A stretch of DNA of 64,000 nt from a virus (lineage: Duplodnaviria > Caudoviricetes), in the IMG/VR virus record IMGVR_UViG_2784746770_000001, positions 1 to 64,000 of that record. One strand, written 5' to 3'. The notes below the pieces were generated by a model. The model was not told where the DNA came from. It ran no database searches and worked only from the letters and a program-made list of their open reading frames with translations. Position 1 is the stretch's first letter. Every line of letters begins with the position of its first letter. Positions 13,147 through 40,212 of the stretch are shown in pieces. A program made the position numbers and the translations under genes.

Positions 13147-15573
13147 ATGGCGCGCCGCTGGTTCCCCGCTCTCCGATCGCTCATCACCCCCGGCCCGGGC
13201 CCGGCCGAGGCGAAAACCGTCACCTGGACCGGCGGCTACACCTCCACCAGCCATGCCGCCGTCACCTCGTGGGGCACCGAGGCCCGGGCCGACGGCTGGG
13301 ACCTCGACAAGGTCGTCACGGAGGGGTACGAGCGGAGCGTCTGGACGTTCAAGGCCATCGACACGATCGGCAAGCACGCCTCCCGCCTGCCTCTGGAGAT
13401 CGGCCGCGGCCTCACCGAGGACGGCGAGTTCGAGGAGACGTTCCCCGACCACCCGCTCCTGCGCGTCCTCAACGGGCAGGCGAACCCGCTGGAGACTGGC
13501 CCCGTCCTGCGCAAGCGCGCCTCCGGCCAGGTGCTCCTCTCCAAGCGTGGCACGTTCGTAGAGGTCACCCGGTCCAACCGGGGCACCATCACACGGCTCG
13601 ACCTACTGCCCCCGGACCGGGTCATCCCCGTGCCCAGCGAGAAGGGCGACTACCTCAGCCACTACGAATTCACGACCCTCTACGGCGAGGTCCGCGAGCT
13701 CGACCCCGAACGCGTCCGCTGGATCCGCGACCCGCACCCCACCGACCCCTTCTCCGGCATCACCCCGCTGGAAGCCGCCGGCATCTCGGTCGACCTCGAC
13801 CACCTCAGCCGCCTCTACAACGTCGCCTTCATCCGCAACGACGCCCGGCCCGGCGGCGTCCTTGCCGTGGACACCTCCACCCTGTCCGACCGGGACATGA
13901 ACCGGCTCGAAAACCGCTTCCTCCCCGGCGCCGAGTACGCCGGCCACCTGTCCGTCATCGGCTCCGGCCCCGGCGGCATCAACTATGTCGACCTCGCCGC
14001 CCGCCCCCGCGAGATGGCGTACGAGCACGCCGCCCAGAACGCCAAAGTCGAGATCCTGGCCGCCTTCGGCGTACCGGAGTCCGTCACCGGCAACGCCTCG
14101 GGACGCACCTTCGACAACGCCGAACAGGAGGAGTACGGCTTCTGGATCCACACAGCGCTACCCCACCTGGAGCTGATCGCCAACACCTTCGCCAGCGACC
14201 TCGCGGCGGAGGGCCTGGCCATCCGCTACGACACCTCCACCGTCGAAGCCCTCGAACTGCCACGCCGCAAACGCCGCGCCGAAGCCCGAGAGGAGTGGGA
14301 AGCCGGGCTGATCTCCATCGACGAGTACCGCAGGCGCGCAGGCCTCCCCGCCTACAACAACCCGCACAGCAGGGCCCTGTGGATCAGCCCGCAGAAGGCG
14401 CCCGTCCCGCAGCACCCCGCCGACGCCGCCGCCCTCGGGATCGCCAGCCCCGGCCAGCCACAGCCCAACGGCGGCGGCCCGCTCCCCGGCCCGGGCGGCG
14501 AGCTCCCGGCCCTCGACCCCGGCACGGAACCGTCCGGCGCGGCCGCGGCCGCCGTCGCCCAGGCCCGCCAGGACGAAGCCACCCCGGCCGGAGGCGGTGC
14601 AGCCGCGGCCGCCGTCGCCACAGCCCGGGCCCAGGACACCGACCTCGGGCCCGGACCGGCCACAGCCGCAGTCGAGCAGGCCCGGGCCGACGACGAGCGC
14701 GAACCCAGCGCGGCCGCGGCCGCAGTCGACGAAGCCCGCGGCATCCAGACGAAGGCCCTACCCGCCGGCCCCACAACCGGGTACACGGCCACCGACGACG
14801 ACTTCGACCGCGTGCTCCTCGCTGCGGCGGCCGCGCTCGACGCGCTCCTCGCCCGGCAGCAAGGCGTCACCCTCGCCCGGCTCCGCTCGCCCAAGGCCCG
14901 GAAGGGCACCCGGTTCTGGACAGCGGACGGTCCTCACGACACCCGGGGAGGAACCACCCGGCTCGACACCTCACGGATCGTGGACGCCAGCCGCTGGACG
15001 GAAGAGGCGGCCGACACCTTCGTTCCGATCCTCACCCGGGCCGCTGCCGCCGTCGCCCGCGACACCGCTGCCGCCCTCGGCGCCGGGACCGCCCCGACGG
15101 CCGCCCAGCCCGGGATCGCCACAGCCGTCCTCGCCGCGGTCGCCGCCGCCACCGCGACCCTCCAGGACTTCCTCGACGACGTCGCCGCCCTACTCGACCA
15201 GGCCCAGACCACCACCGACGATCTGGACGACCTCGCCGCCCTCGTCCGCGCCACCTTCTCCGAGCGCGCCGCCGAACTCGTGCAGCACATCGCCGAGGCC
15301 GCCGCCACCGCCACCGTCAACGGAGCCGCCGAAGCCACCGCCGCCGCCATCGGCCCCGGCATCGAACGCACCTGGATCACCCGCCGCGACGACCGCGTCC
15401 GCCCCGCCCACGCCGCCCAGGACGGCATCACGCTCCCCGTCACCGAGCCGTACGACGTCGCCGGATACCCCATGCGGTACCCCGGCGACCCCATCGCCCC
15501 CATCGCCCTCACCGCCAACTGCCGCTGCCGACTGCTCTACCGCACCACCGACACCGAGGAGACCTCCGCCTGA
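13147..15573 (+). CDS. Portal protein (HK97-like) fused to a C-terminal MuF/minor head domain
   Basis: FSGITPLEAA, F.RNDARPGG, EILAAFGVP, T..N.EQ, GLISIDEYR portal motifs; C-terminal TWITRRDDRVRPAH...RYPGDP...NCRC MuF motif. Confidence 0.9.
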   Translation: MARRWFPALRSLITPGPGPAEAKTVTWTGGYTSTSHAAVTSWGTEARADGWDLDKVVTEGYERSVWTFKAIDTIGKHASRLPLEIGRGLTEDGEFEETFPDHPLLRVLNGQANPLETGPVLRKRASGQVLLSKRGTFVEVTRSNRGTITRLDLLPPDRVIPVPSEKGDYLSHYEFTTLYGEVRELDPERVRWIRDPHPTDPFSGITPLEAAGISVDLDHLSRLYNVAFIRNDARPGGVLAVDTSTLSDRDMNRLENRFLPGAEYAGHLSVIGSGPGGINYVDLAARPREMAYEHAAQNAKVEILAAFGVPESVTGNASGRTFDNAEQEEYGFWIHTALPHLELIANTFASDLAAEGLAIRYDTSTVEALELPRRKRRAEAREEWEAGLISIDEYRRRAGLPAYNNPHSRALWISPQKAPVPQHPADAAALGIASPGQPQPNGGGPLPGPGGELPALDPGTEPSGAAAAAVAQARQDEATPAGGGAAAAAVATARAQDTDLGPGPATAAVEQARADDEREPSAAAAAVDEARGIQTKALPAGPTTGYTATDDDFDRVLLAAAAALDALLARQQGVTLARLRSPKARKGTRFWTADGPHDTRGGTTRLDTSRIVDASRWTEEAADTFVPILTRAAAAVARDTAAALGAGTAPTAAQPGIATAVLAAVAAATATLQDFLDDVAALLDQAQTTTDDLDDLAALVRATFSERAAELVQHIAEAAATATVNGAAEATAAAIGPGIERTWITRRDDRVRPAHAAQDGITLPVTEPYDVAGYPMRYPGDPIAPIALTANCRCRLLYRTTDTEETSA

Positions 15574-15785
15574 TGTGGCCCGCCATCTGGATCGCCTGGA
15601 CCTGCGCCTTCGCCGTCTTCGAGACCATCGCGCTCGCCAACCGCCGCGACAACGACACCCTGTCCGAGAACATCCGACGCCTTTTCCACACCCGCACATC
15701 CAAGGTTGGCCGCGCCGTCTTCGCCGTCGCCTGGTTCGGCTTCTCGGGGTGGTTCGCCCTGCACATCCTCACCGAGACGATGTAA
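15573..15785 (+). CDS. Small two-TM membrane protein (70 aa)
   Basis: TGATG coupling with portal; MWPAIWIAW...TLSEN...WFALHI. Confidence 0.7.
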   Translation: MWPAIWIAWTCAFAVFETIALANRRDNDTLSENIRRLFHTRTSKVGRAVFAVAWFGFSGWFALHILTETM

Positions 15786-15843
15786 CGCGCCGCCGGATCC
15801 CATGAAAGGAGGTCCTTTCCATCAGCCGGCGGAGGGAGGGCGC

Positions 15844-15871
15844 GACGTTAACCCCCCGCGGTGTGCATGGT
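15844..15871 (+). promoter_or_regulatory. Late-type promoter motif copy (leaderless for the giant gene)
   Basis: GACGTTAACC-N12-CATGGT, 7 nt before ATG 15879. Confidence 0.65.
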
Positions 15872-15878
15872 CCGCCGC

Positions 15879-18800
15879 ATGCAGATCGACAACGCCGCTG
15901 ACCGCCGCCTCGCCAGCATCGAGACCAAGCGTCTCCGCCGCCCCTGGAACCCTGATCTGCACCCGCGTGACTCCAAGGGGCGCTTCATCGAAACGGGCGG
16001 TATCGCTCGTCTCTGGGGCGGTGGCATGGCTCGCGTCCTCCGGGCTCTCGGCGGCCGCAACGTCCTTGTCGAGAACCTGGGCACGCACGAGCGCTCCACG
16101 GTCCACGCCTCCCGCCTGACGATGGTTGCCCGGCCCGACGGCACCGCTCCGACCCGCAGTAAGCGGAAGGTCCGCGACGAGGACGAGCGCCGCGCCAAGG
16201 ACCCCCAGCGCGGCGCTGGCCACCAGGACCAGGACGACGCCGGCGACAACGGCCAGACGCCCGACGACCCCCACGACAAGGACGACCAGGGCGACGACGT
16301 CGGCGAGGACGTCGAAGACGAGGACCAGGGCGAAGGCCCCGAGCCGGAGGATGACGACCCGCTTATCCACCAGGGCCGCGTCATGTCGAACGACAAGGAC
16401 GACAACGGCGAACTCCTCCCCGAGGCTGCCAAGACCAACCGGGCGACTCGCCACTACCCGAACCTGCTGCGCATCGACGGAGGGACCCGACGCTCCGACC
16501 ACGTCGCCGGCCGAGGCGACGCGCTGCGCGCCCGCGGCCCGAAGAGGACGAAGAACGACCCCGACCGCGAGGGGAAGTTCCACGACACCGACCATGCGCG
16601 CAACGCCGTCGAAGAGCTGAACACCGACTACCTCGCCGACCTCGAAGCGGTCTGGCCGCAGGACTGGGACAACCGTGAGGCGGAGGACGCGTACGGCTAC
16701 CTGTCCGACCTGGACGGGAACCTCCACCTCGACGACATGATCGACGGCGAGGTCCCGTACGAGACCGACAAGCCGAAGACCCAGCACTCGCCCGACGACC
16801 TCGACACCGTGCGGGACCTCGCCGAGGACGCCGAGCGACTTGCCGAGCTCGCCGAGGCCGACGGCCGTCCGGAAGTCGCCCGGTACGCGCAGAACCTCGC
16901 GGACGCCCTGAACCTGACTGTCCAGCGCTTCGAGGCACACGGCGGGAACAAGATCCCGAAGCCGAAGAAGAACGGCAAGCCCACCCCGCGTGCGTGGCAG
17001 GACGAGCCGGTCCTGCAGCCCAAGGCGACGGCCCCGCGGCGCGCGGCCGCGGCGAAGCCGGCGCCCGCCGACAACCGCCGCTTCAAGACCCTCGCCGACG
17101 TGCGGCAGCACTGGGCCAGCGGCAAGCTCACCCCCTTCACCGACGACCAGGAGCGCCAGGAACGGCACGCCGAAGCCGTCCGGAAGGTCTACGCCCAGCT
17201 CCAGGGCCCCCAGATGTCCAAGGGCGGCACCTTCGTCGTCGCCAAGGCCACGCTCCAGCGCGGCGACGGCACCCCCGAAGCCCGGTACGTCATCGACCAC
17301 ATCGCGACCGGCGGACAGCTGACCTCCTTCGGCCGGAAGGCCGAGGCGGTCGACTTCGCCAACCGGCTGGAGAACGCCCAGGTCGACGGCAAGCCGTTCG
17401 ACTGGGACAGCCCCGGGCTCAACGACCGCCTCCAGGAGGACGGCGCGAAGAAGGAGTTCGGCCGGCTCCTCGCCGAGACGCAGAAGGCGTACGACGACAA
17501 GGCCCGCAAGAAGCGCGGCGGCATGCGCCAGCAGCCGAACCCCGACAGCTCCGAGGCAGCGGCCGCCCAGCAGATCACCGAACGTACGGGCGCCCCCGAG
17601 GGCACCGTCGCCGTCGGACACGTCGGCCCGGACCAGGGCACCGAGCGTGCGGGCGCGCGCACGAAGCCGAACCCCGAGGACGAGCAGCGCGCCGGCGACG
17701 AGCAGCCGTCCCCGGAGCGCCCCGCCATCCCGGCAGGCGCGCTGACCAACGATGATGACAAGACGAAGCCGAAGGCCGAAGACCGGCCGGGCGACGAGCA
17801 GCAGGAGGAGCAGGGTGAATCCGTACGGCGAGCGGGCGAAGGCGTACTGGGAGACGTACAGGCCGACGGCGCTGGCGGCGATTCCGGAGACGGAGAGGGA
17901 CGCGCTCTTCACCAGGATCGGGGAGACGGTGGAGACGGAGATCGGCGAGACGTACATGGACTTCGTGCCGGATCCGGAGCCGGACGAGGAAGTGGACACG
18001 AGGGAGCGGGCCGGTCAGATCAACATGGCGAAGCTGATGGCGCGCGAGGACGCGATGAACGAGCACGTGTACCTGGAGAAGGAGCCGGGGACGGAGACGA
18101 AGGACATGCCGGCGACGACGCCGCTGCCGAAGATCACCGCGTAGCTTTCGGCTCCTCCCAGCAGGAGGAGACCGCCCCCGCCTTCACGCCGCCGGTGGAC
18201 GGTCGCTCGCTCGTCCCGTCCACCGTCCAGGCCCGCGTCCGCGCGAACATCGCCGCCATCGAGGTCCTTCGGACCCTGGAGGCCGAGAACCGCCCCGCGA
18301 CCCCCGCCGAGCAGGACATCCTGTCGCGCTGGTCCGGCTGGGGCGCCACCCCGCAGGTCTTCGTCGACTCCCCCAAGGAGGAGTTCGCCCCGCTCCAGGC
18401 CCGGCTCAAGGAGCTGCTGAGCGAGGACGAGTACGCGGCGGCGAAGGAGAACACCCTCAACGCCCACTACACCGACCCGACCATCGTCCAGGGCGTTTGG
18501 CAGGCCCTGCGCGACCTCGGCTTCGACGGCGGCGACGTGCTGGAGCCCGGCTCGGGCAGCGGCAACTTCATCGGCTACGCCCCGGACGGCGCCCGGATGA
18601 CGGGCGTCGAGCTGGACCCGATCACCGCGGGCATCTCCAAGGCGCTCTACCCGCACGCCGACATCCGCAACGAGGGCTTCGAGAAGACCCGGGTCCCCGA
18701 CGGCACCTTCGACATGGCCGTCGGCAACGTGCCCTTCGGCGACTACAAGGTCGTGGACCTCCGCCACAACAAGGGCGGGCACAACATCCACAACCACTTC

Positions 18801-33800: not shown

Positions 33801-34049
33801 CTCCAGCGCGGCAACCCCGACATCCAGGCCGCCCAGGAGATGTACCACTTCACCCGGACCCACCGCGGGCGCGTGGGAGCGCGCCGCTCCTCGATCGACA
33901 TGCTCCTCGCCCGGCTCTTCCGGGACCAGGCCAGCACCGGGGACGCTGACGCCCTCGTGGCGCAGGGCGTGGCGACGCTGTTCTCCGGCGAGTGGTACCT
34001 CTCGGACGACCTGCGGGCCTTCCTCCTCGGCCTGCTCGCGACGCGGTAG
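15879..34049 (+). CDS. Giant polyvalent protein (~6056 aa): HPRD N-terminal motif, N6-adenine methyltransferase plus SNF2-type helicase (DarB-like), repeated SH3/KOW-like modules, degenerate C-terminal zincin-like domain
   Basis: VLEPGSGSGNF (~18540), AVGNVPF (~18720), AHEVGAGKT (~20730), VVDEAHHYKN (~21250), MGTGTNVQ and PWRPADLEQRNGRIVRQGN (~22260-22380); WNPDLHPRDSKGRF near the N-terminus. Confidence 0.88.
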   Translation: MQIDNAADRRLASIETKRLRRPWNPDLHPRDSKGRFIETGGIARLWGGGMARVLRALGGRNVLVENLGTHERSTVHASRLTMVARPDGTAPTRSKRKVRDEDERRAKDPQRGAGHQDQDDAGDNGQTPDDPHDKDDQGDDVGEDVEDEDQGEGPEPEDDDPLIHQGRVMSNDKDDNGELLPEAAKTNRATRHYPNLLRIDGGTRRSDHVAGRGDALRARGPKRTKNDPDREGKFHDTDHARNAVEELNTDYLADLEAVWPQDWDNREAEDAYGYLSDLDGNLHLDDMIDGEVPYETDKPKTQHSPDDLDTVRDLAEDAERLAELAEADGRPEVARYAQNLADALNLTVQRFEAHGGNKIPKPKKNGKPTPRAWQDEPVLQPKATAPRRAAAAKPAPADNRRFKTLADVRQHWASGKLTPFTDDQERQERHAEAVRKVYAQLQGPQMSKGGTFVVAKATLQRGDGTPEARYVIDHIATGGQLTSFGRKAEAVDFANRLENAQVDGKPFDWDSPGLNDRLQEDGAKKEFGRLLAETQKAYDDKARKKRGGMRQQPNPDSSEAAAAQQITERTGAPEGTVAVGHVGPDQGTERAGARTKPNPEDEQRAGDEQPSPERPAIPAGALTNDDDKTKPKAEDRPGDEQQEEQGESVRRAGEGVLGDVQADGAGGDSGDGEGRALHQDRGDGGDGDRRDVHGLRAGSGAGRGSGHEGAGRSDQHGEADGARGRDERARVPGEGAGDGDEGHAGDDAAAEDHRVAFGSSQQEETAPAFTPPVDGRSLVPSTVQARVRANIAAIEVLRTLEAENRPATPAEQDILSRWSGWGATPQVFVDSPKEEFAPLQARLKELLSEDEYAAAKENTLNAHYTDPTIVQGVWQALRDLGFDGGDVLEPGSGSGNFIGYAPDGARMTGVELDPITAGISKALYPHADIRNEGFEKTRVPDGTFDMAVGNVPFGDYKVVDLRHNKGGHNIHNHFIIKSLDLTRPGGLVAVVTSRYTMDGATARAEDARMEMARKGELVGAIRLPSGAHRRTAGTDVVTDLLIFRRRDKDKEFTTGRDRKGAVKLARGKDDPPAWVHSMRVTDLPGQSPADKDNPQAEKVFVNPYFLANRDRVLGELAVGSGMYRDGELRVDGDGHLAPALDKALKKIVADAKTDGLAYKKGDRDRPKAQLLPAGSDRIDGHVQAEDDGAFTQVRDGQIKPYQVSAKQTDEVRQLLGLRDAMKALIAEEARPDADEQIIAMLRADLNARYDKYHGKYGSLNRYTWGKRKVTDPVTGETVEKATKSRPQMGGIMTKDPTMAVVRSLDTFDITTGQSKKSSVFTKRQAVHRTISDRADSPEDAMALVLEEHGRLDDEALGKVLGLSPADARVRLLEARSKDPDSGREWPLVFEPHNGGDLIPAADYLSGNVRAKLAEAQQKAGENAAFEVNVRHLEEVLPPEISPGEIDAPMGAAWLGAEPVQQFLRETLRDRNIRVYYHGGSMWKVEAPDATKKGRAATALWGTKEWNAIKLAEAILTNGRIQVRVKDDNGGSYIDEEATGAAQAKAEEMRERFQDWLWEEPKRSDAIKKAYNDTHNNLALRSYDGQRRTMPGLADWFKPHAHQHSAVARMVNEPAVLLAHEVGAGKTAEMTMGVMELRRLGLINKAAMVVPGHMLQQFHDEFVELYPQSAGRILTASSDDLQGRKRREFIARAATGDWDAVIMTQTAFESIQMRPEAQLAYIEREKASLERALKRQKAAEEKEEGRRGRSESRMVKEIQNRLKKLEAKIESKIAASKDTAGLYFEDTGIDYVVVDEAHHYKNLATASSIQGAAIEGSNRASDLDMKLEYLRSKTSSGRVVTFATATPISNSVTEAHTMLRYLRPDLLEKAKIRDFDDFASTYGKIVSGVELAADGSGFKEVSRFAAFRNMPELMRIWRTVADVKTAEDLHLDVPDIAGGKAVTITVDPTDAQMAYQQQLAARARAVKSGAVDPSEDNMLKISSDGRKVSLDPRMVGIDEVGNKLPAAADNIQRIYEQTKDAVYPTSKNDDTPHETPGALQIVFLDMGTPKDPGRKKKGKKGAAPADLEEMAESNFAAYDELKSLLVERGVPADKIRFIHEAKNDAEKARLFDDARTGKIAVLVGSTTKMGTGTNVQLRATALHHLDCPWRPADLEQRNGRIVRQGNANPEVAIFQYVTEQSFDGFSWQTVARKAKFIRQLMKGNLTDRTVEDIPDGIFNPEQVTAMATGNAYLLEQANVRASLAVLQRKFKGYLRAQEGFRSTIRNAERLREHTDNLVAKLQDVAARKKDTRGDAFEATIGSTTFTKRQEAMQALATAAKAVIRAGDKNPHAQHPEHIIGKIGNIDITAEYKRDWSRPYGRQGTVMISLPDVPQSTRLYGEDDFDEGATVPLTRLEDFLAGVETAIARAQSDLRVEERNAVDARLRVDKPFEQADELEAAERRSKLVAAAIREQSREVSSPEAAAAKRSRMEEIEHNLREARIAAGEDPADADDPAQAQDTDLLPRTPAPPSITTDAKGTTRILWPDAEERKKRRAREKAERDGTPLREDSTESGEGEELTPEKVRSDLNSIKPDVAPEPKPDSDENTAPGAAEPDEGDVESGEGEELTPEKVRSDLNSIKPDAAPEPESTDTSQAADDNKSDTTNVGQTTPDRLEASEGQPLAPTADDESRDEQPTGTSAPASAEAPARDLPAVNDPVLSPDGPGEVMAVNPDSNSVLVRAERGTRVHKLEDITRPDGTPFGGDPTAKTKARENAEKIAQASTPEGLELSTGNRLRDLDMDAGHGTIVDSEGNTVGWVRARTGDDGRRYWWGQDANGGSPADMQWHEELPDQAGAPPVRAASVIRDGLDDRRAKYTGNDDENGKPEREKRKLITPDRAITEMTLTEAQVRELGKLTLSGQYADGTPIDTLPWNPGHRRYSPYSAQAGAIAAAAREAAAQQPDTPEGRRVRKVLLGAARKMEFQQYDSARRAATIPAVGKPDPYDKPYVPRPEDDDAEESSTPASQNDDTQPADSDGEGTEPTESEKTSADGEQTNVSPDALTPGDYVRVETQNTAGNTVVREGHLLAVPKQVTATRNREKIQAWRLHLGQEGEQPSTQNGITILREQQVERLTPPVPETRDEEEHTNTLGWKGPEETREKVGQHDGKDVEVGELHVAGSEAHRAVYLDGKRIGRLDAANGAWRAHHDEHGDVGNRLFMGYKNDWENGSYEPHDPTREAALTVARSHENGPEGPRFFSHDGRAVPQNEAEQIVAAHLDPRLGDRWKVSDIKRGRADVYVDHNLAGEIAGARDRWQVVGENGQPDGIVYPTKEAAAQALAANSPLLAIKPSPNFHFPDYPDTLTDPELDNWIAASKKWLVEDAPHLPAGAATPVWVRNNLSKLEGLREKRDARRTDAPREFATDGEWRDAIKPIGDVELEVYTAARHAWPGRDEVPATAHRLHDAVMKAIAAQEVNDFDDAATYLRNAVEHASRLRGSLDDEQRGHLDEPLTKFTAAVESYLRSHDATANRRQSWREEEREVNERFSAQAREQTDRNRAPAPEHSSEDDSANTAESQTAPTAEQEASSGGHRWGSGDAVITPGGERGTLANPPMFGTAMVRLDDGRYESHPLAELTPVGPTSEEPTGLPDDLDVQWQALADLAPDAPALIGARGNLRQAAEALAAGDQEAASDNLGKAARIMWPFNGGDSSDWNAAARDFSIAADHAAARLTPLREGERLATYGELKKGDIVRRPDLDDYYRVDEDAHSRGREWETWYAQSTLVNDGQHGGGFGFQPAAHSMIVADENSPAVREYIAKEERKLADKRAEKEQIAAEQESRRQEAARARNDELLAQADGDAVEPEALSKGDRITVHEGRNNRGQTVTVSGRLLAEPEKVTATRAGKKVPSWRLYVGEEGDELRPGTMYTVERGERVERHTDATPASAAEEQNQDGDDNLEEALTAQVSSFLRAVRRRDRKPRRDPVANSYDFNRGRIEQAYRNNVDRPRLDPDISDAPDAEFVDVDQLQIGDRIRFETVEYPSQRQVTREGYLLARPQIGLHYRGEGSTQYPGYRIWLGETPDEEPGDFKNMRVLLVGDKVARLPHIDSADSEERDPNRPDENGENEESDRPNRDGRRDDRNGPNEISGGNDGDGGGDAPGPEGDADADDDQGEEEPDSDERRRRRRDRNRDRNRGGRDGGTPNGGLPDIPGRDRDRDRSRGRDDRDRSGNADAPDLDGLRSRYRSGDAPTPSGADSQEHAAYLRHLADNDTLSLSPGGGLITWSDDSGRTWQFGHAVSGTRLTGWEADGEQIGGRDGAVRLAGEYENLRNEDGGLINWAAPELDLEDLRAWVDAEGNPLSLAVEETRQNVIRTRPHGSTGQQERQTGADVPGNDDDRSASEPADNRQLNAADGNQTGSDTEGVAPGAADAAQSQYAVNAIHWGDPAQRRAGFVDGRRIPTATDLKQYETGESKIISEEGERVLFGSPEQMRALASEGLVPGPVMRSDGAGQVWRNGRLIGTLTAPHQVSNSQNPEEVWWSTTPFSDGPHFSTREAAIAHLVLRDIERGEPDLGIVHPDLASRLAGVDERLAFPDDFRGLETLTNNPGDLARYEALRKLMSQLGRGITPSGNVAEDLAQLHDELRWLNTKHYKHQPPNLKDRYILGPGWLADQISEYLDVLRPEDPRAQHHEARKNRAAQQVLEELATPGWEDNAERVQARDLREGDIVFLEGRITGLYPGATGRQLGYVIGEPKKVKFTADKVRYQGYKIAVAKHPFEATRHPVDGKTFLIPDDQGPLLRLARAEDVHFPLDQHEYGRQVGETPSMGTDPRGAALGGVPGTADADAAPAPRDIAGDADSASPSSAVDSDDDVTPSSTASTPSTASTNENTSTRTRQRTNAAPVVPGNDSAGAGRTNQEEAENEPDTEAESQGAPEPVGGRRAEWVKVSDLALGNLVRIDGITKARGTARTLTGFVVDGPKEVPTEKARRVQNKLRLLISDTPDGRGGTRQSIWVPKDATAARATDDEADAPDGTPPTGADSDVLTGRIADRVPTDNSGRGLFPGSIVTDNRGNEGTVTGATDSTVSVRWGDDRDDEDMTPSALTLTDGGAARPSGWTEDGHRVRPGHVVTDRAGTLLGTVEEVDGDTATVATPDGMRDTPIADVRVAGGVADAPQPPAAAVRLERVPASELREGDVILVDDGINGLAPVTVTQKEQVSDNHVRITATDPATGRQHTLNGSPTSPYSRVVDENGAAPVNAPDDSEDNSELTSHEPVPPVTPVVGPTVDPQLAPEERDAVDGLGEAPLDDPDTQQGAARVASDLPLTPGQATSLAGTLREHADPATPEGRAAQRAADHLDAAAGQTPEATTAPEPGTIGAVGVGDHITLPDEFEADKTTSYKVVAIAELPDGMRYLTLEDGDGIRVRRTLAASDPLWQVPDPSIPASDLDEEQRDPNPAPDPDRITSDYRDSVVRAVVEAALGGTNEPGSIHKLRQDVAERLTPQALTQPMKHAREDAKQAIDGAGITGDERVALLRSLRPEAARARQDAIKAALRTLNDLEPLDGESEQDTARRAADLLRLIPAALRDQYSQQDTDTDTSPEVDAAVTEHVDSAVGEALAQAADGQPLTEERRAQIVAQLAEQMAANRDETAQRIAAALPPGQRAGVLPHILAALVFIARKIVAIVAAFLRGIARAWRGSREALSKLREKAARFRRSLAERVRSWPENRRLRRLAANALPQPDDGADLADRIAHWTRLLPAPGRFGQVSRRARWYKPARRATLEAGQLPEIQDGLRWLPDRAADRGPGREALRHLAALRAAGADVDGDLTARLAAAHPELGAAPHSSVRDAMDYAAIAERRLRDLTAATAAGTDTDGELEAARVEAAGARRDAARLRDLYAAALPDAVRDVLSQVREMGPGGASALVVTDDSDRDAARILTDIQQFIPRDWLTPASSRMITARDGQAGGYDAHSRTATIADLGDDGRVTAIHALVTHLQRGNPDIQAAQEMYHFTRTHRGRVGARRSSIDMLLARLFRDQASTGDADALVAQGVATLFSGEWYLSDDLRAFLLGLLATR
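17815..18144 (+). CDS. TnpV-like protein (109 aa) overprinted in the +1 frame inside the giant ORF
   Basis: AGGAGG 6 nt before GTG; almost all codons end in G/C in this frame; YG.RA..YW..YRP and GQINMAKLMAREDAMNEHVY resemble TnpV. Confidence 0.72.
   Translation: MNPYGERAKAYWETYRPTALAAIPETERDALFTRIGETVETEIGETYMDFVPDPEPDEEVDTRERAGQINMAKLMAREDAMNEHVYLEKEPGTETKDMPATTPLPKITA
23532..23745 (+). repeat. Exact 70-bp direct repeat (23532-23601, 23676-23745) encoding ESGEGEELTPEKVRSDLNSIKPD twice
   Basis: Identical nucleotide copies 144 bp apart, in frame. Confidence 0.9.
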
Positions 34050-34052
34050 GAG

Positions 34053-34301
34053 ATGAGCATGAGGGTGACGGGCACGTTCGAGGACGGGGCGGCCTACGAG
34101 GTAGAGATCACCGGCCGGTCCGACCGGCCGGTGATCGGCTCCCGCCGCATCGCGGCCCTCGTGGAGCAACGCACAGGCACCCCCATGGTGATGGCGCTGC
34201 TCGGGCCGGTCCGCGGCCTCGACCCGGCAGATGAAGAGGCGGTGCTCGCGCTGCTGCGTCAGGAGACGTACGTCGTGGAGACAGAACGCCGCCGAACCTA
34301 G
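34053..34301 (+). CDS. Small hypothetical protein directly after the giant protein (possible partner or immunity protein)
   Basis: AGGAG RBS overlapping the upstream stop; 82 aa. Confidence 0.7.
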   Translation: MSMRVTGTFEDGAAYEVEITGRSDRPVIGSRRIAALVEQRTGTPMVMALLGPVRGLDPADEEAVLALLRQETYVVETERRRT

Positions 34302-34335
34302 ACCGCTCGGCGTGAACGGCCCCTACGCTGACGGC

Positions 34336-34545
34336 ATGACGATGAAGCGGACTCCCGGCAAGACGACAACGACCGTCAACCTGCGCGCACTGCTCGGTGC
34401 GCGCGGGCACCAGGTGACGCTCGTCGACCTGGATTCGTCCGTCTCGATCCCGTCTCCGGTGGCCGCCGACGAGGTGGAGGAGCGCCCCGAGGTCCCGCTT
34501 CCGGGCCCGATGGTGTGGTCCCCGGACGGGTACCGCTCCATCTGA
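34336..34545 (+). CDS. 69-aa protein resembling a ParA N-terminal remnant
   Basis: PGKTTTTVNLRALLGARGHQVTLVDLD; TACGCT -10-like box 6 nt before ATG. Confidence 0.5.
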   Translation: MTMKRTPGKTTTTVNLRALLGARGHQVTLVDLDSSVSIPSPVAADEVEERPEVPLPGPMVWSPDGYRSI

Positions 34546-34592
34546 GAGGCGGGGAGGGGACACAAGGGCTGTCAGCCCTTCAACCTCCCCGC

Positions 34593-35162
34593 GTGGACTA
34601 CGCATACGCAGTGAAGGCCCTGCCCTCGGAAGGCAGCGAGGCGCCCGAGCCCGATACCGGCCAGCCCTCGGCCCCCGAACCGCAGGAGCGCACGGACGAC
34701 AGTCGGCCGTGGGCGGGAGACCCCTACGACGAGGGGGACGAAACCGACCCGACCGCAGCTCTGTTCGGCTTCGGCGGGCAGAACGGTGAGGAAGCCTGGC
34801 TCGACAAGGCGCCGGACGGCACCCTCACCGGGTGGGTCCGGGACGGCACCGGCCAGGTGTGGCGGTACTCGGACCCGGATGCCTGGGCGATCGACGTCGA
34901 CGACGCGGGCATGACCCAGACGCACGGCCCCGACGGCGGCACCGCGCCGGCCGCGCCCGGTGATGGCGACGCAGAGCAGGCCCCGGCGCCGGGTGCCCCG
35001 GACGCGTCTTCGGCCGATCAGGCCGACCCGTTCTCCATGGAGGTCGCCGCCGCGGGCGAGACCCCAGCCCCTGCTGACGAGGATGCCCCGGTCTCCGAGA
35101 CGGACGAGGACCTGGACGACGAGGACGACGAGGACGACGGAGCGAAGAAGCCGTGGGACTGA
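34593..35162 (+). CDS. Acidic head-region protein (189 aa)
   Basis: GTG 6 nt after the promoter motif at 34559-34586; begins MDYAYAVKA; D/E-rich. Confidence 0.72.
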   Translation: MDYAYAVKALPSEGSEAPEPDTGQPSAPEPQERTDDSRPWAGDPYDEGDETDPTAALFGFGGQNGEEAWLDKAPDGTLTGWVRDGTGQVWRYSDPDAWAIDVDDAGMTQTHGPDGGTAPAAPGDGDAEQAPAPGAPDASSADQADPFSMEVAAAGETPAPADEDAPVSETDEDLDDEDDEDDGAKKPWD

Positions 35163-35236
35163 TGAGCAGCGCGCGACGGTAGCCCCTGGCCGGGGGCACG
35201 GTGCGGCGATCACACCGCCGCCAGGAGGAACCCGCC

Positions 35237-37123
35237 GTGCCGAGCCCCCCGCCGCCCCGCAACCTGATACTGCCGCGCGGCGCTGCCCGCGCCATCTTCG
35301 CCGTGACCGGCGTCGTCGACGACGTCCAAGACCTGATCATTCCCGGCGCCTTCACCCGCACCCTGCAAAGCCGCAAGGTCAAAAGCGTCTGGCACCACGA
35401 ATGGAAGGACCCCATCGGTCGCGTCCTTGCCATCGAGGAGTGGATGCCCGGCGACCCGCGGTTCGCGACGATCCCCGGCGGCGCCGCCTGGCCCCGCGAG
35501 GCCGGCGCCCTCGTCGCCGTCGTGAAGTTCAACCTCCGCACCGTCCGCGGCCGCGACGCCTACGAGCAGGTGCGCGACTGGCACGACGCCAACGAGGCCC
35601 AGTTCTCCATCGGCTACAAGGTCCCGCCCGGTGGGGCCTCCAAGCGCCACGACGGCGTCAGGATCATCCACGACCTCGACCTGTACGAGGTCAGCCCGGT
35701 ACTGCACGGCGCGCATCCCCTGACCCGCAGTATCGAGGTCAAGTCCGGCCGCGCCGACGACCTGGAGCGCAAGGCCACCTGGTCCTCCATCGAGCTGGAG
35801 CAGAAAGCCGCCGAGACCCAGACGGGCAAGGGCGTAATGGTCGCCCTGTACCCGCCGCTGGACGTCGCGGAGCGGATCGCCCAGCCCAACGGCACCCCGG
35901 CCGAAGAACTCCACGTCACCCTCGCCTACCTCGGCGACGCCGCCGACCTCGGCGACGCTGCCGAGGATCTGCGCACCGTCGTCTCCGACGCGGTACGGGC
36001 CGCGACCCCGCTCAAGGGGACGATCGGCGGCATCGGGACTTTCCCCGACAGCGGCGACGGCGCTCCCACATGGGTGCCCGTGGACGTGCCGGGCCTCACC
36101 GAACTTCGCCAGGCCATCGCCACCGCACTCGCCACCTCCCCGTACGCCGAGGCCGTGCGCACGAACCACGGCTTCACCCCGCACCTCACCCTCGGCTACG
36201 ACATGCCCCCCATCGAGCCGGTGCCGGCCACCCCCGTCACCTTCGACCAGGTGTACGTCGTCTTCGGAGCCGACCGGATCCCGGTGCCGCTCGCCGGCCG
36301 CACTCCCGAGGTCTCCGCCCCGGAGCCCGTCGAGACCAAGACCGCGCGCACCGCCGTCATGGAGGCCAAGGCCGCCCGCCCGCGCATCGCCAAACCGGCC
36401 CACGCCGCCGTCCTCGAAGCCAAGTCCGCCCTGTCCTACCCGGAGGCTCCCGTGAGTGCGCCCATGCCCTACTCCTTCGAACAGCTCCGCACCCGCCTCG
36501 GCGACGCGGCCCGCGCCCTCCTCAACAGCGACGGCGACGGCTGCTTTGTGATGGTCGAGGCGACCTACCCGGACCGCGTCATCGTCTCCCACCACCAGGA
36601 CGGCGAGACGCGGACGTACGCCATCCCGTACACCGCCACCGGCCGGGACATCGACCTCGGCACCCCCCAGCCGGTCGAGCTGGCCACGATCGCCCTGCCC
36701 GCCGAGGGAACCCAGCGGCCTGTTGACGGCGACGAAGAGATCGACGCCCGCTACCTCCAGCCCGCTGTGGGCGCCATCGAAGACGCCACCGCCTCCGTGT
36801 ACCTGGCGCCCGCCACGCCGGCCTCCGTCGAACGGCTCCGCCCGACCGTGCGCAAGCTGCTCCACGCGATGTCGCAGAAGGGCGCCCCCATCGAGCCGGA
36901 TCTCTCCGCCACCTCGCCGGAGGGCGCCGGGGTTGAGCTGAACCTGTGGGACGACGGGTACGAGGTCACCGACGGCTGGGACGACGAGGACGAAGACGAG
37001 GAGAACGACACCCCTGCGCCCGCCGCCGCCCCGGACGACTCCCCGCCTCCGGCCGAAGACGACGACCAGGTCCTCCTCGACCCCGCCGAGGTGAAGGCCG
37101 CCCTCGCCGCCCTGACCTCCTGA
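35237..37123 (+). CDS. HK97-type prohead maturation protease fused to a 2H phosphoesterase domain and a C-terminal extension
   Basis: VVDDVQDLIIPGAF..., W.H....PIG, FSIGY, LYEVSPV..GA.P protease motifs; HVTLAYLG (35912) and PHLTLGY (36182) 2H motifs; GGAGG RBS. Confidence 0.88.
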   Translation: MPSPPPPRNLILPRGAARAIFAVTGVVDDVQDLIIPGAFTRTLQSRKVKSVWHHEWKDPIGRVLAIEEWMPGDPRFATIPGGAAWPREAGALVAVVKFNLRTVRGRDAYEQVRDWHDANEAQFSIGYKVPPGGASKRHDGVRIIHDLDLYEVSPVLHGAHPLTRSIEVKSGRADDLERKATWSSIELEQKAAETQTGKGVMVALYPPLDVAERIAQPNGTPAEELHVTLAYLGDAADLGDAAEDLRTVVSDAVRAATPLKGTIGGIGTFPDSGDGAPTWVPVDVPGLTELRQAIATALATSPYAEAVRTNHGFTPHLTLGYDMPPIEPVPATPVTFDQVYVVFGADRIPVPLAGRTPEVSAPEPVETKTARTAVMEAKAARPRIAKPAHAAVLEAKSALSYPEAPVSAPMPYSFEQLRTRLGDAARALLNSDGDGCFVMVEATYPDRVIVSHHQDGETRTYAIPYTATGRDIDLGTPQPVELATIALPAEGTQRPVDGDEEIDARYLQPAVGAIEDATASVYLAPATPASVERLRPTVRKLLHAMSQKGAPIEPDLSATSPEGAGVELNLWDDGYEVTDGWDDEDEDEENDTPAPAAAPDDSPPPAEDDDQVLLDPAEVKAALAALTS

Positions 37124-37139
37124 TCCAGCCTTCACGCCC

Positions 37140-37181
37140 CGTGCTCCCGGCCCCGCGAAGCTCCGCGGAACCGGGAGCACG
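37140..37181 (+). terminator. Stem-loop between the protease and capsid genes
   Basis: CGTGCTCCCGG...CCGGGAGCACG with inner CCGCG/CGCGG stem. Confidence 0.5.
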
Positions 37182-37295
37182 CGACGTTAACCACTTCGGT
37201 CCTCTCCAATGCGCCTCGCGTTGAGGCGTCCCGGTGCTGGCCGGGCGAGCGACGCACGCCATCGCCCAGCCCAGCACAGGGAGAAGACCCGCACC

Positions 37296-38603
37296 ATGGC
37301 CACCGCCACCGCCGACAAGAGCCTCCTCAAGTCGCTCAACGCACAGCTCGCGGAGAAGTCCGCCGAGGCCGAGCGCATCGCCGGCACCTTCAAGGAGGAG
37401 AACGGCGCCTTCGTCATCAGCACCGATCAGCGCAACGCCTACGTCAAGGCCGTACGCGACGCCCAGGAGATCAAGGGCCTGATCGACGCCGCCTCCGGTG
37501 CAGCCTCCATCGGCACCTACCTCGACGCCCCCGAGGGCGGCGCCCCGGCGGCCGCGCAGCACTACGGCAGCCCGCAGCCGGACGCCGAGTTCAAGTCCCT
37601 CGGCGACATGTTCGTCGAGTCCGACGCCTACAAGCGGGCCGCGGCCGCCGAGTTCAAGGACCGGCCGTTCATCCGTGCGGAGATGGAGGGCAAGAGCATC
37701 TTCTCGCTCTCCGCCGGCACCCAGACCCACCAGGCCCTCGGTACCGGCCAGGAGCTCCCGCTCACCGAGCTCCGGCGCCGGAAGATGCACATTCGGGACC
37801 TGTTCCCGAAGGCCCGCACCAAGGCCGCCTTCCTGATGGGTGTCCGCGAGACCGGCTGGGTGAACAACGCCGCGCAGGTCAAGGAACGTTACGCCGCCGA
37901 CGGCGTCTCCCCGGCCACCGGTGCCGACAGCGACGTCTTCGGCCGGGCCCCGCGCTCGAAGCTCACCCTTGAGCCCGTGATGTACCCGGTCGCAGAGATT
38001 GCCCACCTGATCGACTCCCACAAGTCGATCCTGTCGGACGACTCGCGGCTCAAGTCCTTCATCAACGGCCGCATGATCGAGGGCGTCAAGTTCGCGGAGG
38101 ACTACGATCTCCTCCACTCCGTCGGTGACGGCCAGAAGCTGACCGGCCTCTTCAACGTGCCGGGAGTTCAGCAGTACACCGGCGACGCCAAGGACAAGTA
38201 CTCCGTCCAGATCCGACGGGCGATCACCAAGTCCCTGCTCGCCGAGTACGAGCCCACCGGCATCGTGCTCAGCCCCACCATGTGGGAGCACGTCGAGGTC
38301 GAGGAGGACGACACCGGCGCCTTCCGCGTTGCCCTCCAGGTCGCCGTCGGCGCGACCAAGCAGGTCTGGCGGATCAACGTCGTCGAGACCACCGCCATGC
38401 CGGACGGCAAGTACCTCCTCGGAGCCTTCGGCATGGGCGCCCAGCTCTACGACCGCGAGAACGTCTCCGTCACCGTCTCCTCCGAGAACAGCGACAACTT
38501 CGAGCGGGGCGTCATCACGTTCCGCGCGGACGAAAGGCTGAGCCTCGAAGTACCGCGACCTGAGTCCTTCGTCCTGGGGACCTGGACCACGCCGGCCCCG
38601 TAA
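37296..38603 (+). CDS. Major capsid protein, HK97 fold with N-terminal delta domain
   Basis: Coiled N-terminus, KSLGDMFVES, IAH....K..L.D...L.S.I, G.G..LTG, F.R..IT.RA.ERL...V.RP..FV. Confidence 0.93.
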   Translation: MATATADKSLLKSLNAQLAEKSAEAERIAGTFKEENGAFVISTDQRNAYVKAVRDAQEIKGLIDAASGAASIGTYLDAPEGGAPAAAQHYGSPQPDAEFKSLGDMFVESDAYKRAAAAEFKDRPFIRAEMEGKSIFSLSAGTQTHQALGTGQELPLTELRRRKMHIRDLFPKARTKAAFLMGVRETGWVNNAAQVKERYAADGVSPATGADSDVFGRAPRSKLTLEPVMYPVAEIAHLIDSHKSILSDDSRLKSFINGRMIEGVKFAEDYDLLHSVGDGQKLTGLFNVPGVQQYTGDAKDKYSVQIRRAITKSLLAEYEPTGIVLSPTMWEHVEVEEDDTGAFRVALQVAVGATKQVWRINVVETTAMPDGKYLLGAFGMGAQLYDRENVSVTVSSENSDNFERGVITFRADERLSLEVPRPESFVLGTWTTPAP

Positions 38604-38698: not shown

Positions 38699-38968
38699 TT
38701 GCCGGACACCAACAGCGGGCTCATCAACGATCTCGACGCCCTCGCCGCCGCGGCCCCGGTGCGCAAGGGCCCCCGGTGCACACTCGCCCTGATCCTGGAC
38801 GCCCTCGACGAGCCGGCCGCCGCCAAGCTCCGCGAAGTCCTCGACTCCCCGACCTCAGCCCCCCAGGTTGCCGACGCCCTGACCCGCAACGGCCACCCCG
38901 TCCAGGCCCCGGCCGTCGCACGACACCGCCGGCGCGGCACCAGCAGCGGATGCAGGTGCCCGCGATGA
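38699..38968 (+). CDS. Small HTH/zinc-like phage protein
   Basis: C...HRR...CRC pattern; TTG start with GAGGA RBS; ATGA overlap with the next gene. Confidence 0.7.
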   Translation: MPDTNSGLINDLDALAAAAPVRKGPRCTLALILDALDEPAAAKLREVLDSPTSAPQVADALTRNGHPVQAPAVARHRRRGTSSGCRCPR

Positions 38969-40212
38969 GCCTCGAAGACCACCTCGACGCTCTCCTGCGC
39001 CCCGCGGCCGACACACAGTCCGAACCGCCCCAGACCATTCGCCCCGCCGCCATGGCACCCAAGGGGTGGGAGCCCGGCGTCCGCTACGAGCCCGGCGGCT
39101 CGATGCTCGTCACGGCCCCGGCCGCCGAAGCGCCCCCTCAGGACGAGACCGGGTGGCGCGAACGCGTCGAAGCGCTCGGGCTCGCCGTCCCCGACGGCTA
39201 CCGCGTCCGCCTTGTCGAAGCCCGGCACGATCCGGCCGCCTGGCACCGCGACGCCCAAGGCGAGGACGCCGTCACCCGGCCCGTATGGCGCTGCCGGTAC
39301 CTCGTTGAGCCCGCCACCCCCGGCTGGGCTTCCACCGACGACCTGAACAGCCTGGTCCGCGACGCCATGCGCCGTCGCCGCAAGGCGCGCCCCGCCCCCG
39401 AGACCACCGCCCGCGCGCTGGGAGTGGTGTACGCCGACCCCCAGGCCGGGAAGGTCGGACGCGACGGCGGCACGAAGGAACTCGTCGGCCGCATCGCCGA
39501 CCGCTTCGACCGCCTCCAGGACCACCTCCGGGATCTCGGCAAGGTCGGCCGCGCCCCCGACTCCGCGTACTGGCTCGATGGCGGCGACTGCATCGAAGGA
39601 TTCGAGAACGTCACCAGCCAGGCGTTCACGAACGACCTGACCATGACGCAGATGGTCCGGATCCACCGTCGGCTCACCTTCGAGGGCCTGGACCGGCTGG
39701 CCGCCGCCTTCCCCCGCGTCGTCGCCGCGACCGTCGGCTCGAACCACGCCCGCGTCAGACGCGGCAAAGACCCGGTGGGACCGCCCGAGGACGACTGGGG
39801 CATTGAGGTCATGAGCCAGATCGCCGACGCCTACAGCCGGAATCCCAACACCTACGGCCACGTCAGCTTCGTCACCCCCGAACCCTGGCGCGACACGATC
39901 TCCCTCGACATGGCCGGCACCATCGTCGGCCTCGCGCACGGCCACCAATACCCCCGGCCCGAGAAGGCCGTGGACTGGTGGCGAGCCCAGACCTTCGGCC
40001 GCCAGCCGATCGCCGACGCCCGCGTGCTTCTCACCGCCCACTACCACCATTTCCGCGCCCAACAGCTCGGCAACGGACGGCTCTGGCTTCAGGCCCCCAC
40101 CCTCGACAACGGGAGCGACTGGTACGCGATGCGCTCCGGCGAGGTCTCCCAGCCCGGCCTCATGGTCTTCTCCACCACCGCCGACGGCTGGGACGACCTC
40201 CGCATTCTCTGA
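38965..40212 (+). CDS. Calcineurin-like metallophosphoesterase / Mre11-like nuclease
   Basis: ADPQ, GDCIE, SNH, AHGH and AHYH motifs in canonical order. Confidence 0.82.
   Translation: MSLEDHLDALLRPAADTQSEPPQTIRPAAMAPKGWEPGVRYEPGGSMLVTAPAAEAPPQDETGWRERVEALGLAVPDGYRVRLVEARHDPAAWHRDAQGEDAVTRPVWRCRYLVEPATPGWASTDDLNSLVRDAMRRRRKARPAPETTARALGVVYADPQAGKVGRDGGTKELVGRIADRFDRLQDHLRDLGKVGRAPDSAYWLDGGDCIEGFENVTSQAFTNDLTMTQMVRIHRRLTFEGLDRLAAAFPRVVAATVGSNHARVRRGKDPVGPPEDDWGIEVMSQIADAYSRNPNTYGHVSFVTPEPWRDTISLDMAGTIVGLAHGHQYPRPEKAVDWWRAQTFGRQPIADARVLLTAHYHHFRAQQLGNGRLWLQAPTLDNGSDWYAMRSGEVSQPGLMVFSTTADGWDDLRIL

Follow-up and report, generated by a model that had tools for sequence, protein, structure and literature searches.

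A conserved E-x-K motif brackets an enzyme embedded in the prohead protease of a Streptomyces phage-plasmid and may mark head proteins for processing

The prohead protease of phage T4 processes head cargo at a shared motif, and the proteases of the T4 gp21 group (T4, phiKZ/SPN3US) cut after Glu. For SPN3US, 14 sites in 9 substrates are described, with leaders of 20-24 residues as well as long ones, and Ser is preferred at P1' (PMC10052503). In phage P1, the N-terminal 30 residues of DarB mediate its packaging, and the capsid protein is cut after Glu120 (PMC9024508). Iyer, Burroughs, Anand, de Souza and Aravind (2017; PMC5512222) described a methylase-helicase dyad, predicted that assemblin-like peptidases process polyvalent proteins and, for 2H domains in fusion with MuF or portal, predicted packaging, injection and the degradation of defence nucleotides. 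Here we analysed a window of 64,000 nucleotides, which comprises bases 1-64000 of the 129,292-bp virus record IMGVR_UViG_2784746770_000001 (estimated 94% complete, around 70% G+C) and is the left half of a Streptomyces phage-plasmid of about 129 kb. In its head module a short motif, namely a hydrophobic residue followed by Glu or Gln, any residue and Lys (phi-E/Q-x-K), brackets a 2H phosphoesterase that is embedded in the prohead protease, and it recurs at domain boundaries of other head proteins as a candidate cut signal.

The locus can be compared with each of these systems. As in HK97, the gene of an S78 protease adjoins that of an HK97-fold capsid protein with an N-terminal delta region, and there is no separate scaffold gene. 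As with T4 gp21 and the gp245 protease of phiKZ/SPN3US, there would be one protease and one short motif shared by the capsid, the portal, internal or ejected proteins and the protease itself (PMC10052503), and several sites are possible per propeptide. As in the Dar system of P1 (DarB, DarA, Hdf, Ulx, DdrA/B), a giant methylase-helicase antirestriction gene lies beside the portal and protease genes. Nevertheless, the putative cut in the window is after Lys and would be made by an HK97-type S78 enzyme, which differs from the T4 gp21 group. Furthermore, the substrates of phiKZ/SPN3US lose propeptides, and in that report none is described as a folded enzyme excised from the protease polypeptide (PMC10052503). 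HK97 gp4 has 225 aa and no embedded enzyme, whereas the protease of the window is 640 aa long and includes a 2H domain as well as an additional C-terminal one, and HK97 has neither a portal-MuF fusion nor a giant cargo gene. Regarding P1 DarB, neither an HPRD module nor an E-x-K leader is described, both of which the giant of the window has; with 6062 aa, the last 3062 of them unmatched, this giant also differs from DarB. In Iyer et al. the assemblin-like peptidase sits 'always at the C termini' and processing is mostly by zincin-like peptidases, whereas the protease of the window is N-terminal and its cargo sits between two site clusters. No cleavage motif, 2H/NUDIX alternation or HPRD leader was found in the part of that paper available, although its supplementary architectures may hold such cases (PMC5512222). 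The initial annotation of the region had proposed a candidate new system of processed capsid cargo. This label was too strong, because the processing of head cargo at a shared motif is established in phiKZ/SPN3US (PMC10052503) and the injection of 2H domains fused to MuF or portal had already been predicted (PMC5512222).

The prohead protease polyprotein (35201-37123; this and all further features of the head module are on the + strand) has 640 aa and matches Pfam Peptidase_S78 with 46.6 bits (cut-off 21) and PHROG 80, head maturation protease, with 6.4e-18. An AlphaFold model built on 58 sequences, with a mean predicted local distance difference test (pLDDT) of 78.5, gives the order S78 protease, linker 1, 2H phosphoesterase, linker 2, C-terminal domain, acidic disordered tail and terminal helix. 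In the protease domain (aa 28-180, 35282-35740) the pLDDT is 82-95 at aa 21-160 and 77-79 at aa 161-180. Among the 58 sequences S136 is invariant and H66 is kept in at least 90%; we paired these residues by eye with Ser114 and His65, the catalytic residues of HK97 gp4. The 2H domain (aa 211-363, 35831-36289) matches PF13563 (2_5_RNA_ligase2) with 54.8 bits (cut-off 27) and carries the motifs H238-x-T240 and H328-x-T330, in which T330 is kept in at least 90% of the same sequences and the other three residues do not vary. Since H238, T240, H328 and S136 are invariant, both enzymes look intact and active, judging from sequence. The best Foldseek matches of the 2H domain are CPDase (5h7e, 1.5e-6) and E. 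coli LigT (5ldm, 1e-5), with the viral 2'-5' phosphodiesterases ranking below them; Acb1 (7t26) is found at rank 30 (E 2.7e-3, TM-score 0.61 on the target). The 2H domain also dominates the Foldseek list of the whole polyprotein, in which T4 gp21 (5jbl) appears at rank 50 with an E-value of 3e-2. The C-terminal domain (aa 426-559, 36476-36877) is modelled with confidence as a helix, a sheet and two long helices, and nothing among known families or folds was seen to match it. PHROG 18402, annotated as 'head maturation protease', already includes a 2H-like segment.

The motif lies in the linkers of this polyprotein. Linker 1, ahead of the 2H domain, has IEVK|S at aa 178, LERK|A at 188 and LEQK|A at 199 (35732-35806; the bar marks the putative cut), and linker 2, behind it, has VETK|T at 377, MEAK|A at 387 and LEAK|S at 405 (36329-36424). 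A seventh site, AEVK|A at aa 629 in the terminal helix (37085-37096), was missed by the initial annotation. We followed these sites in 121 protease-2H homologues, that is, the query and the best 120 of 498 matches, with at least 44% identity. In linker 1 all 121 have the motif at K181 and at K191, and 65/121 have it at K202; in linker 2 it is found at K380 in 96, at K390 in 94, at K398 in 80 and at K408 in 113, K398 being a fourth site of linker 2 in most relatives. The site of the terminal helix (K632) has the loose motif in 22/121, and the corresponding sequence is DEVK|A in three Streptomyces relatives, namely the cultured phage Gilgamesh, the plasmid NBC_00536 and S. zaomyceticus. When the density of sites was partitioned by alignment column, linker 1 had 2.55 sites per protein (0.076 per aa) and linker 2 had 3.20 (0.032 per aa); the protease domain had 0.07 (0.0005 per aa), the C-terminal domain 0.03 (0.0002 per aa) and the 2H domain 0.02 (0.0001 per aa, with sites in 2 of the 121 proteins). 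Within the linkers the mean frequency of the top residue was 0.95 at the E/K positions (n=12) and 0.52 at the other positions (n=55). The wider unit A-x-x-A-V-[LM]-E-A-K occurs in tandem, predicted as short helices. Residues 183-202 have a pLDDT below 50, and linker 2 (368-419) is mostly of low confidence, below 50 at 368-383, 390-399 and 410-419, with two short helices. Two clusters of sites that bracket an enzyme within the protease suggest that this enzyme is cut loose inside the capsid.

Regarding chance, we counted the loose motif [AILMVFYW][EQ].K in 25 proteins of the window against 500 composition-preserving shuffles. The protease has 7 matches versus 0.71 expected, a count that 0/500 shuffles reach, and the capsid protein has 4 versus 1.10 (p 0.012); the corresponding figures are 2 versus 0.51 for the portal (p 0.094) and 10 versus 9.43 for the giant (p 0.47). 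In the 121 protease homologues the loose motif has a mean of 6.06 versus 0.75 expected, and, when Glu is required at P3 and S/A/T at P1', a mean of 5.57 versus 0.13. In the whole record (102 crudely called open reading frames (ORFs), 36,818 aa) the strict form [AILMV]-E-x-K-[SAT] was found 14 times versus 5.3 expected, and all 14 matches are within 13147-57347, in the structural module; the protease has 7 of them, the capsid protein 2, and each of five further ORFs has 1. The record as a whole shows hardly any enrichment of the loose form (49 versus 39.7). The motifs that the initial annotation had listed in the portal, the giant, the small protein at 34515, the protease and the capsid protein were all found where it had placed them. 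The enrichment is real in the protease and the capsid protein, but in this single genome it is not significant in the other three. For the sites of the portal, the giant and the 34515 protein, the support therefore comes from their conservation in related elements.

The domain between the two linkers is not always a 2H enzyme. A search with the C-terminal domain alone gave 87 proteins, in 2H and NUDIX forms, and 44 of them consist of S78, NUDIX and the same C-terminal domain. In these 44 proteins the strict motif has a mean of 3.89 versus 0.15 expected; two sites precede the NUDIX domain in 44/44, and behind it one site is present in 44/44 and another in 36/44. Gilgamesh gp52 is of this form, with LEVK|S, LEYK|S, the Nudix box, IEHK|S and IEAK|S in this order. 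On a tree of the flanking domains (151/165 rows, 14 having been dropped for lack of anchor patterns) the 2H/NUDIX label changes once, with 99% local support. We therefore rejected repeated swapping of 2H and NUDIX, since a single change suffices. In a Thermobispora plasmid, a distant member of the family, the slot holds an extra small domain and a degenerate 2H-like segment, with K-sites around both. The insert of the Thermobispora protease (19899-22019 of its locus) has the signature W-G-T-P-G-D-F-[ND]-R-C-V, and a domain with this signature is also found inside a separate head-module protein, gp12 of the Brevibacterium phage Cantare (7579-8889 of its locus). Among the literature titles listed, none matched for fusions of a maturation protease with NUDIX, and only Iyer 2017 and a preprint on sponge proteins came up for a prohead protease together with a 2H phosphoesterase.

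The HK97-fold major capsid protein (37296-38603, 435 aa; Pfam Phage_capsid PF05065, 97.9 bits, cut-off 24.2) starts, according to its homologues, at Met30 of the ORF that opens at 37209, that is, at 37296; the listed homologues are mostly 427-442 aa long. It matches solved capsid proteins, including mature HK97 gp5 chains (around 1e-29), with about 133 residues ahead of the aligned mature start, an extension of the delta-domain type. The site MEGK|S (aa 159 in the numbering of the 37209 ORF, 37683-37694) is the predicted boundary between the delta region and the mature protein, and AEFK|S (aa 126, 37584-37595) lies 33 residues upstream. Among 121 homologues [M/I/L]-E-G-K is present in all and followed by S in 120; the upstream site keeps E in 120, K in 120 and S in 111, and has a hydrophobic P4 in 73. 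Of the 385 aa of HK97 gp5 the solved mature chain comprises 282, which places the start of the mature protein at Ser104, after Lys103 (TFNK|SLGS), and since residue 27 of mature HK97 aligns to residue 162 of our capsid protein, Ser104 corresponds to its residue 136. The predicted neo-N-terminus, Ser134, is thus 2 residues before the equivalent of Ser104, and the predicted Lys|Ser cut is at most 2 residues from the aligned K103|S104. The initial annotation had appealed to an HK97-type cut after Lys. Lys|Ser is indeed common to both, but it is all that the capsid site has in common with HK97, whose site is T-F-N-K|S without Glu at P3; the P3 Glu is particular to the actinobacterial protease clade. 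Unlike the corresponding proteins of the window, HK97 portal (gp3) and protease (gp4) have 0 loose motifs. Nothing usable was found in the literature on the cleavage specificity of HK97 and T5 or on the processing of the phiC31 capsid.

The portal-MuF fusion (13147-15573) has 808 aa and matches Pfam Phage_portal PF04860 with 136.9 bits (cut-off 39.1) and the portal PHROG with 2.3e-83. Its MuF half (aa 537-808, 14755-15570) has MuF and head-morphogenesis matches in Pfam and PHROG at aa 616-806: Phage_Mu_F PF04233 gives 25.1 bits, below the cut-off of 29.6, and two PHROG head-morphogenesis families give 1.2e-19 and 3.7e-14. Gilgamesh gp46 is annotated as 'portal and MuF-like fusion protein'. A portal search of genome contigs gave 3 loci and a scan of viral contigs with an alignment gave 15; of 18 portal sequences collected, 15 were distinct and were compared. 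At the junction of the two halves, IQTK|A (aa 533-536, 14743-14754) reads [ILV]-[QE]-x-K-A-L in all 15, while the sequence downstream is variable; elsewhere this site is LETK|T in Gilgamesh, PETK|S in S. zaomyceticus and QETK|T in Thermobispora, and there is also a site in NBC_00536. Close to the N-terminus, AEAK|T (aa 20-23, 13204-13215) keeps E-x-K in 15/15, and the more distant versions are AETK, VETK and LETK|A in Gilgamesh, S. zaomyceticus and Thermobispora respectively. The linker between portal and MuF (around 14540-14740, aa 465-531) has four Ala-rich repeats AAAAV-x-x-AR, conserved in a portal alignment of 12 sequences. They resemble the A-x-x-AV[LM]EAK unit of the protease linkers with Arg in place of Lys, and may be extra sites or docking repeats.

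A small acidic head-module protein (34515-35162) has 61% identity by tblastn to Gilgamesh gp50. It carries YAVK|ALP at 34605-34616 (aa 31-35, the start codon being uncertain), and at the same position Gilgamesh gp50 and S. zaomyceticus have FAIK|ALP and NBC_00536 has VK|TLP. K|ALP is common to this protein and the junction site of the portal.

The giant DarB-like methylase-helicase is encoded between the portal and protease genes by an ORF of 6062 aa that opens with GTG at 15861; its likely start is ATG 15867 (15867-34049), since relatives begin with MVRRMQ. It matches PHROG 10089 'DarB-like antirestriction' (E 0, 1322 bits) and the Pfam families SNF2, ResIII, Helicase_C and Eco57I methylase, and its last 3062 aa have no PHROG or Pfam match. 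Near its N-terminus the site IETK|R (aa 20-23 of the ORF from 15861, 15918-15929) is found 10 residues before HPRD. The Lys of this site, K23, marks the only conserved site of the giant, kept in 15/16 full-length homologues. Internal chopping of the giant at the motif was considered and rejected, because there is no enrichment and only K23 is conserved. Some of the homologues are even below expectation, with 3 versus 10.0, 4 versus 9.8 and 0 versus 2.5 motifs; this deficit could reflect avoidance of internal cuts, the effect being weak and the sequences non-independent.

The site precedes a small beta-barrel module that opens with the motif HPRD-x-x-GRFIETGG (15960-16196, with HPRD at 15960-15971). 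In the model the leader has a pLDDT of about 52 and ends at the site Lys (K21 in this numbering), and it is followed by the confident barrel, with a pLDDT of at least 96 at aa 31-110. The best matches of the module in a VIA search of the PDB are generic KOW, Tudor and SH3-like folds with Z-scores of 7.8 at most, and are non-specific; in BFVD nothing was found at E <=0.001. The module may dock on the MuF half of the portal. A profile-free search with residues 1-110 among 1.84 billion representatives gave 173 clusters at E <=0.001, of which 150 were listed. The HPRD module was within the first 80 residues in 120 of the 150, and most of the listed proteins have 2,000-7,000 aa. Upstream of HPRD the motif was found in 72 of these 120 representatives of 50% identity clusters, versus 7.2 +/- 2.5 (maximum 16) in 1000 shuffles, and in the more distant subset in 47/95 versus 6.0. 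Its density was 0.0198 per aa upstream and 0.0004 in the next 200 aa. The spacing from Lys to His ranges from 9 to 37 residues, with a mode of 11 (35/72). The N-terminal site thus fits a cleaved leader in the model, and its frequent fixed spacing also permits a structural role.

As a control we took nine matches that do not belong to head proteins, among them four of the tape measure and those of p40834, ParA, mtp52547 and p54774, and looked for them in Gilgamesh, NBC_00536 and S. zaomyceticus. Six were kept in 0/3 relatives and two in 1/3, whereas the main head sites were kept. The tape-measure match LESK was kept in 2/3, and the ParA match had no alignment. In distant relatives with a related protease, namely the Thermobispora plasmid, Cantare and the Gordonia phage UBSmoodge, the pattern recurs in head proteins. 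Cantare and UBSmoodge are myophages whose protease domain has 43-48% identity, and both have the motif in the capsid, the portal and the protease linkers; it is also found N-terminally in a head-module protein of 1040 aa, ahead of a different conserved module. In Cantare gp11 (4433-7555 of its locus) and UBSmoodge gp35 (8110-10272) an N-terminal phi-E-x-K is followed by a module VRT-x-x-G-x4-GQPIG, and in UBSmoodge this module is fused ahead of the protease itself. Altogether, conservation was found for the protease linkers, the capsid, the site before MuF and the giant's N-terminus: the motif is a conserved, non-random signature of head-module proteins, which brackets the 2H enzyme, precedes MuF, marks the HK97-equivalent end of the delta region and stands at the N-terminus of the giant.

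We hold it rather probable that phi-E/Q-x-K is the cut signal of this protease clade, and that self-processing frees the hydrolase in the head, splits portal from MuF and trims the leaders of the giant and of the gp50-like protein. This reading draws on the domain architecture, on catalytic motifs that are intact, on a motif that is both conserved and confined to linkers, on the exchange of the domain between them and on the agreement in position with HK97; the cut itself, its substrates, packaging and ejection are inferred throughout. The motif, mostly followed by S, A or T, would be the recognition site of the S78 protease, which would cut after Lys. The protease would be made as a polyprotein and enter the procapsid, presumably through its C-terminal part, by analogy with HK97 gp4. 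There it would cut the capsid protein at MEGK|S, and perhaps at AEFK|S too, removing the delta region; it would trim about 23 residues off the portal and separate the MuF half at IQTK|A, and it would take a leader of about 20 residues off the DarB-like giant and a short one off the acidic gp50-like protein. Self-cuts at 2-3 sites of linker 1 and 3-4 sites of linker 2 would release a folded hydrolase of about 18 kDa, either 2H or NUDIX. This hydrolase is likely too large to leave the shell and so would stay in the head, from which it would enter the next host with MuF, the giant and the DNA. In the new host it would destroy nucleotide or RNA-end signals of the host defence, while the DNA that comes in would be methylated or remodelled by the giant. 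That the cargo reaches the next host goes one step beyond cleavage and is proposed by analogy with the MuF, DarB and T4 precedents. Taken to its full extent, the proposal would be that, in Streptomyces phage-plasmids and related actinobacterial phages, a Lys-specific code of the HK97-type protease, phi-E-x-K|small, defines a cargo slot inside the polyprotein, so that as many hydrolase copies as protease copies are present per procapsid, excised there and injected before gene expression to disarm nucleotide-signalling defences, and that the same code trims the leaders of giants whose HPRD module anchors them in the head; we put this forward only tentatively, as somewhat doubtful in this complete form.

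Several points weigh against cleavage at the motif, or against parts of it. The specificity is extrapolated, since the HK97 site has no P3 Glu and HK97 gp3 and gp4 are devoid of the loose motif. In the literature we found no virion proteomics or N-terminal data for any member of the family. K181 is on the last strand of the modelled protease domain, and linker 2 is partly helical in the prediction, where helices rich in A, L, E and K easily yield such words. In the portal, P4 of the N-terminal site is Ala in only 4/15 relatives and otherwise T, D or P. The giant has R, A, V or I at P1' and not S, A or T, and its commonest spacing, 11 residues, could mean that the motif is part of the structure of the HPRD module. 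Over 16 giant homologues the loose motifs number 98 versus about 113 expected, that is, there is no enrichment; the initial annotation had the giant freed by maturation, but with one conserved site only a leader of about 20 residues would be removable. Furthermore, the stand-alone 2H protein of Cantare (gp9) has no motif, the single change on the tree means one old replacement and not frequent exchange, and the homologues are mutually related, so that counts of sequences are not counts of independent events.

The sites may be real while the embedded enzyme, 2H or NUDIX, has its task late in infection in the cell that makes the virions, degrading alarm nucleotides that the prohead protease itself can set off, the capsid cleavage then being disposal or incidental. 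Being fused to the protease, the hydrolase would be made in step with it; both 2H and NUDIX are nucleotide hydrolases, and the 2H fold resembles cyclic-nucleotide and 2'-5' phosphodiesterases, including Acb1, which acts against the cyclic-oligonucleotide-based antiphage signalling system (CBASS), at the rank and E-value given above. A 2026 preprint reports that phage prohead proteases activate CBASS by cutting loops of CD-NTases (PMC12991175). Nevertheless, Acb1 is not among the best structural matches, which are LigT and CPDase, and a purely cytoplasmic role leaves the 5-7 conserved sites flanking the cargo in 121 + 44 proteins unexplained. We judge this explanation unlikely on the whole, and it is compatible with delivery as well.

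The motif could instead be a docking or assembly element, E-x-K peptides that bind to the inside of the capsid, to the delta region or to the portal, thereby recruiting proteins that stay uncut. The tandem helical units of the protease linkers, the similar AAAAV-x-x-AR repeats of the portal and the fixed spacing in many giants agree with this, as does P1 DarB, whose N-terminal targeting signal is of the uncleaved type (PMC9024508). But the capsid copy lies no more than 2 residues away from where HK97 is known to be cut, with Lys|Ser in both, the sites are at the N-terminal edge of mature-type domains, like propeptide junctions, and P1' is limited to small residues in the protease and the capsid protein, so docking without cleavage seems to us quite improbable. 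Finally, the motif might be a by-product of composition and shared ancestry in Lys/Glu-rich helical or disordered segments, with no selection on it. The near absence of enrichment of the loose form genome-wide, the non-significant matches of the portal, the giant and the 34515 protein within the window and the relatedness of all homologues counted would be expected in this case. It is disfavoured, however, and we give it hardly any credence: no shuffle equalled the protease count, E and K are near invariant while the neighbouring linker residues vary, the sites outlast the replacement of the domain between them, the motif of the giants persists at variable distances from HPRD in representatives with at most 50% identity, and the matches in tail proteins are mostly not conserved.

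Regarding the element as a whole, the + strand of the window encodes lanthipeptide-type dehydratases, the portal-MuF fusion, the giant, small ORFs, the protease-2H polyprotein and the capsid protein in this order, followed by an exonuclease, connector proteins, a small MuF-like protein, the major tail protein, a ParA-like protein, the tape measure and minor tail proteins. The relatives comprise dozens of Streptomyces contigs of 120-138 kb and complete circular plasmids of 125-133 kb with ParA, and with ParB in at least one. Gilgamesh, with 129,136 bp and S. lividans as host, agrees in gene order, with the portal-MuF fusion as gp46, the giant as gp48, then gp49-51, the protease fusion as gp52 and the capsid protein as gp53; its candidate sites include IEGK|S in the capsid protein and LEVK|A in gp48. 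Given the plasmid relatives and this cultured phage, the family is one of phage-plasmids that produce virions. Among the literature titles listed on Streptomyces phage-plasmids there was nothing on this family, and no paper on Gilgamesh was found.

Other features of the window were observed in passing. Directly upstream of the head module a lanthipeptide-type gene set (3191-10887) lies inside the phage-plasmid record; its products are a DUF6082 protein, a dehydratase of the LanB family (714 bits) and a protein in which a LanB C-terminal domain is fused to a PCMT-type methyltransferase. The ParA-like gene (44646-45599) lies within the tail module; in NBC_00536 a ParA/ParB pair occupies its place on the opposite strand (31630-33998 of its locus), which fits a plasmid lifestyle. 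Between the capsid and connector genes, the exonuclease (38776-40212; PHROG 284, 3e-56) has no motif matches and could be another head-associated enzyme; at the corresponding place Gilgamesh has gp55, annotated as a metallophosphoesterase. No large terminase was found with Pfam PF03354 and PF03237 in the record to which the window belongs, and none was seen beside the portal; in Gilgamesh it is gene 1 (1-1758), 29 kb from the portal and adjoining a tyrosine integrase. The ORF at 34231-34545, with a weak CbiA/ParA-like Pfam match over about 35 residues, has an overlap with both the gp49-like and the gp50-like gene and probably does not represent a gene, and gp51 of Gilgamesh, a 'ribosome modulation factor', has no counterpart in the window.

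What is new here is a Lys-type motif for a clade of HK97-type proteases, a cargo enzyme, 2H or NUDIX, that the protease polypeptide contains between clusters of sites, and a leader motif ahead of the widespread HPRD module. Shared-motif processing in heads (T4, SPN3US/phiKZ), the packaging of P1 DarB and the prediction of 2H injection were already known. If the cuts are real, they would establish which sequence is recognised by a large clade of HK97-type proteases of actinobacterial phages, and a defence-countering enzyme pre-loaded as an excisable insert of the maturation protease would be a new route, in which its copy number is fixed and its packaging guaranteed. They would also provide a testable leader code for the delivery of giant DarB-like proteins, in more than 100 diverse sequence clusters, and, if the cargo-slot proposal in its full extent is true, a natural and reusable capsid-cargo tag. 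The cultured relative Gilgamesh, which grows on S. lividans, makes the reading of cleavage and cargo directly testable, and the locus marks out a widespread family of 125-137-kb Streptomyces phage-plasmids.

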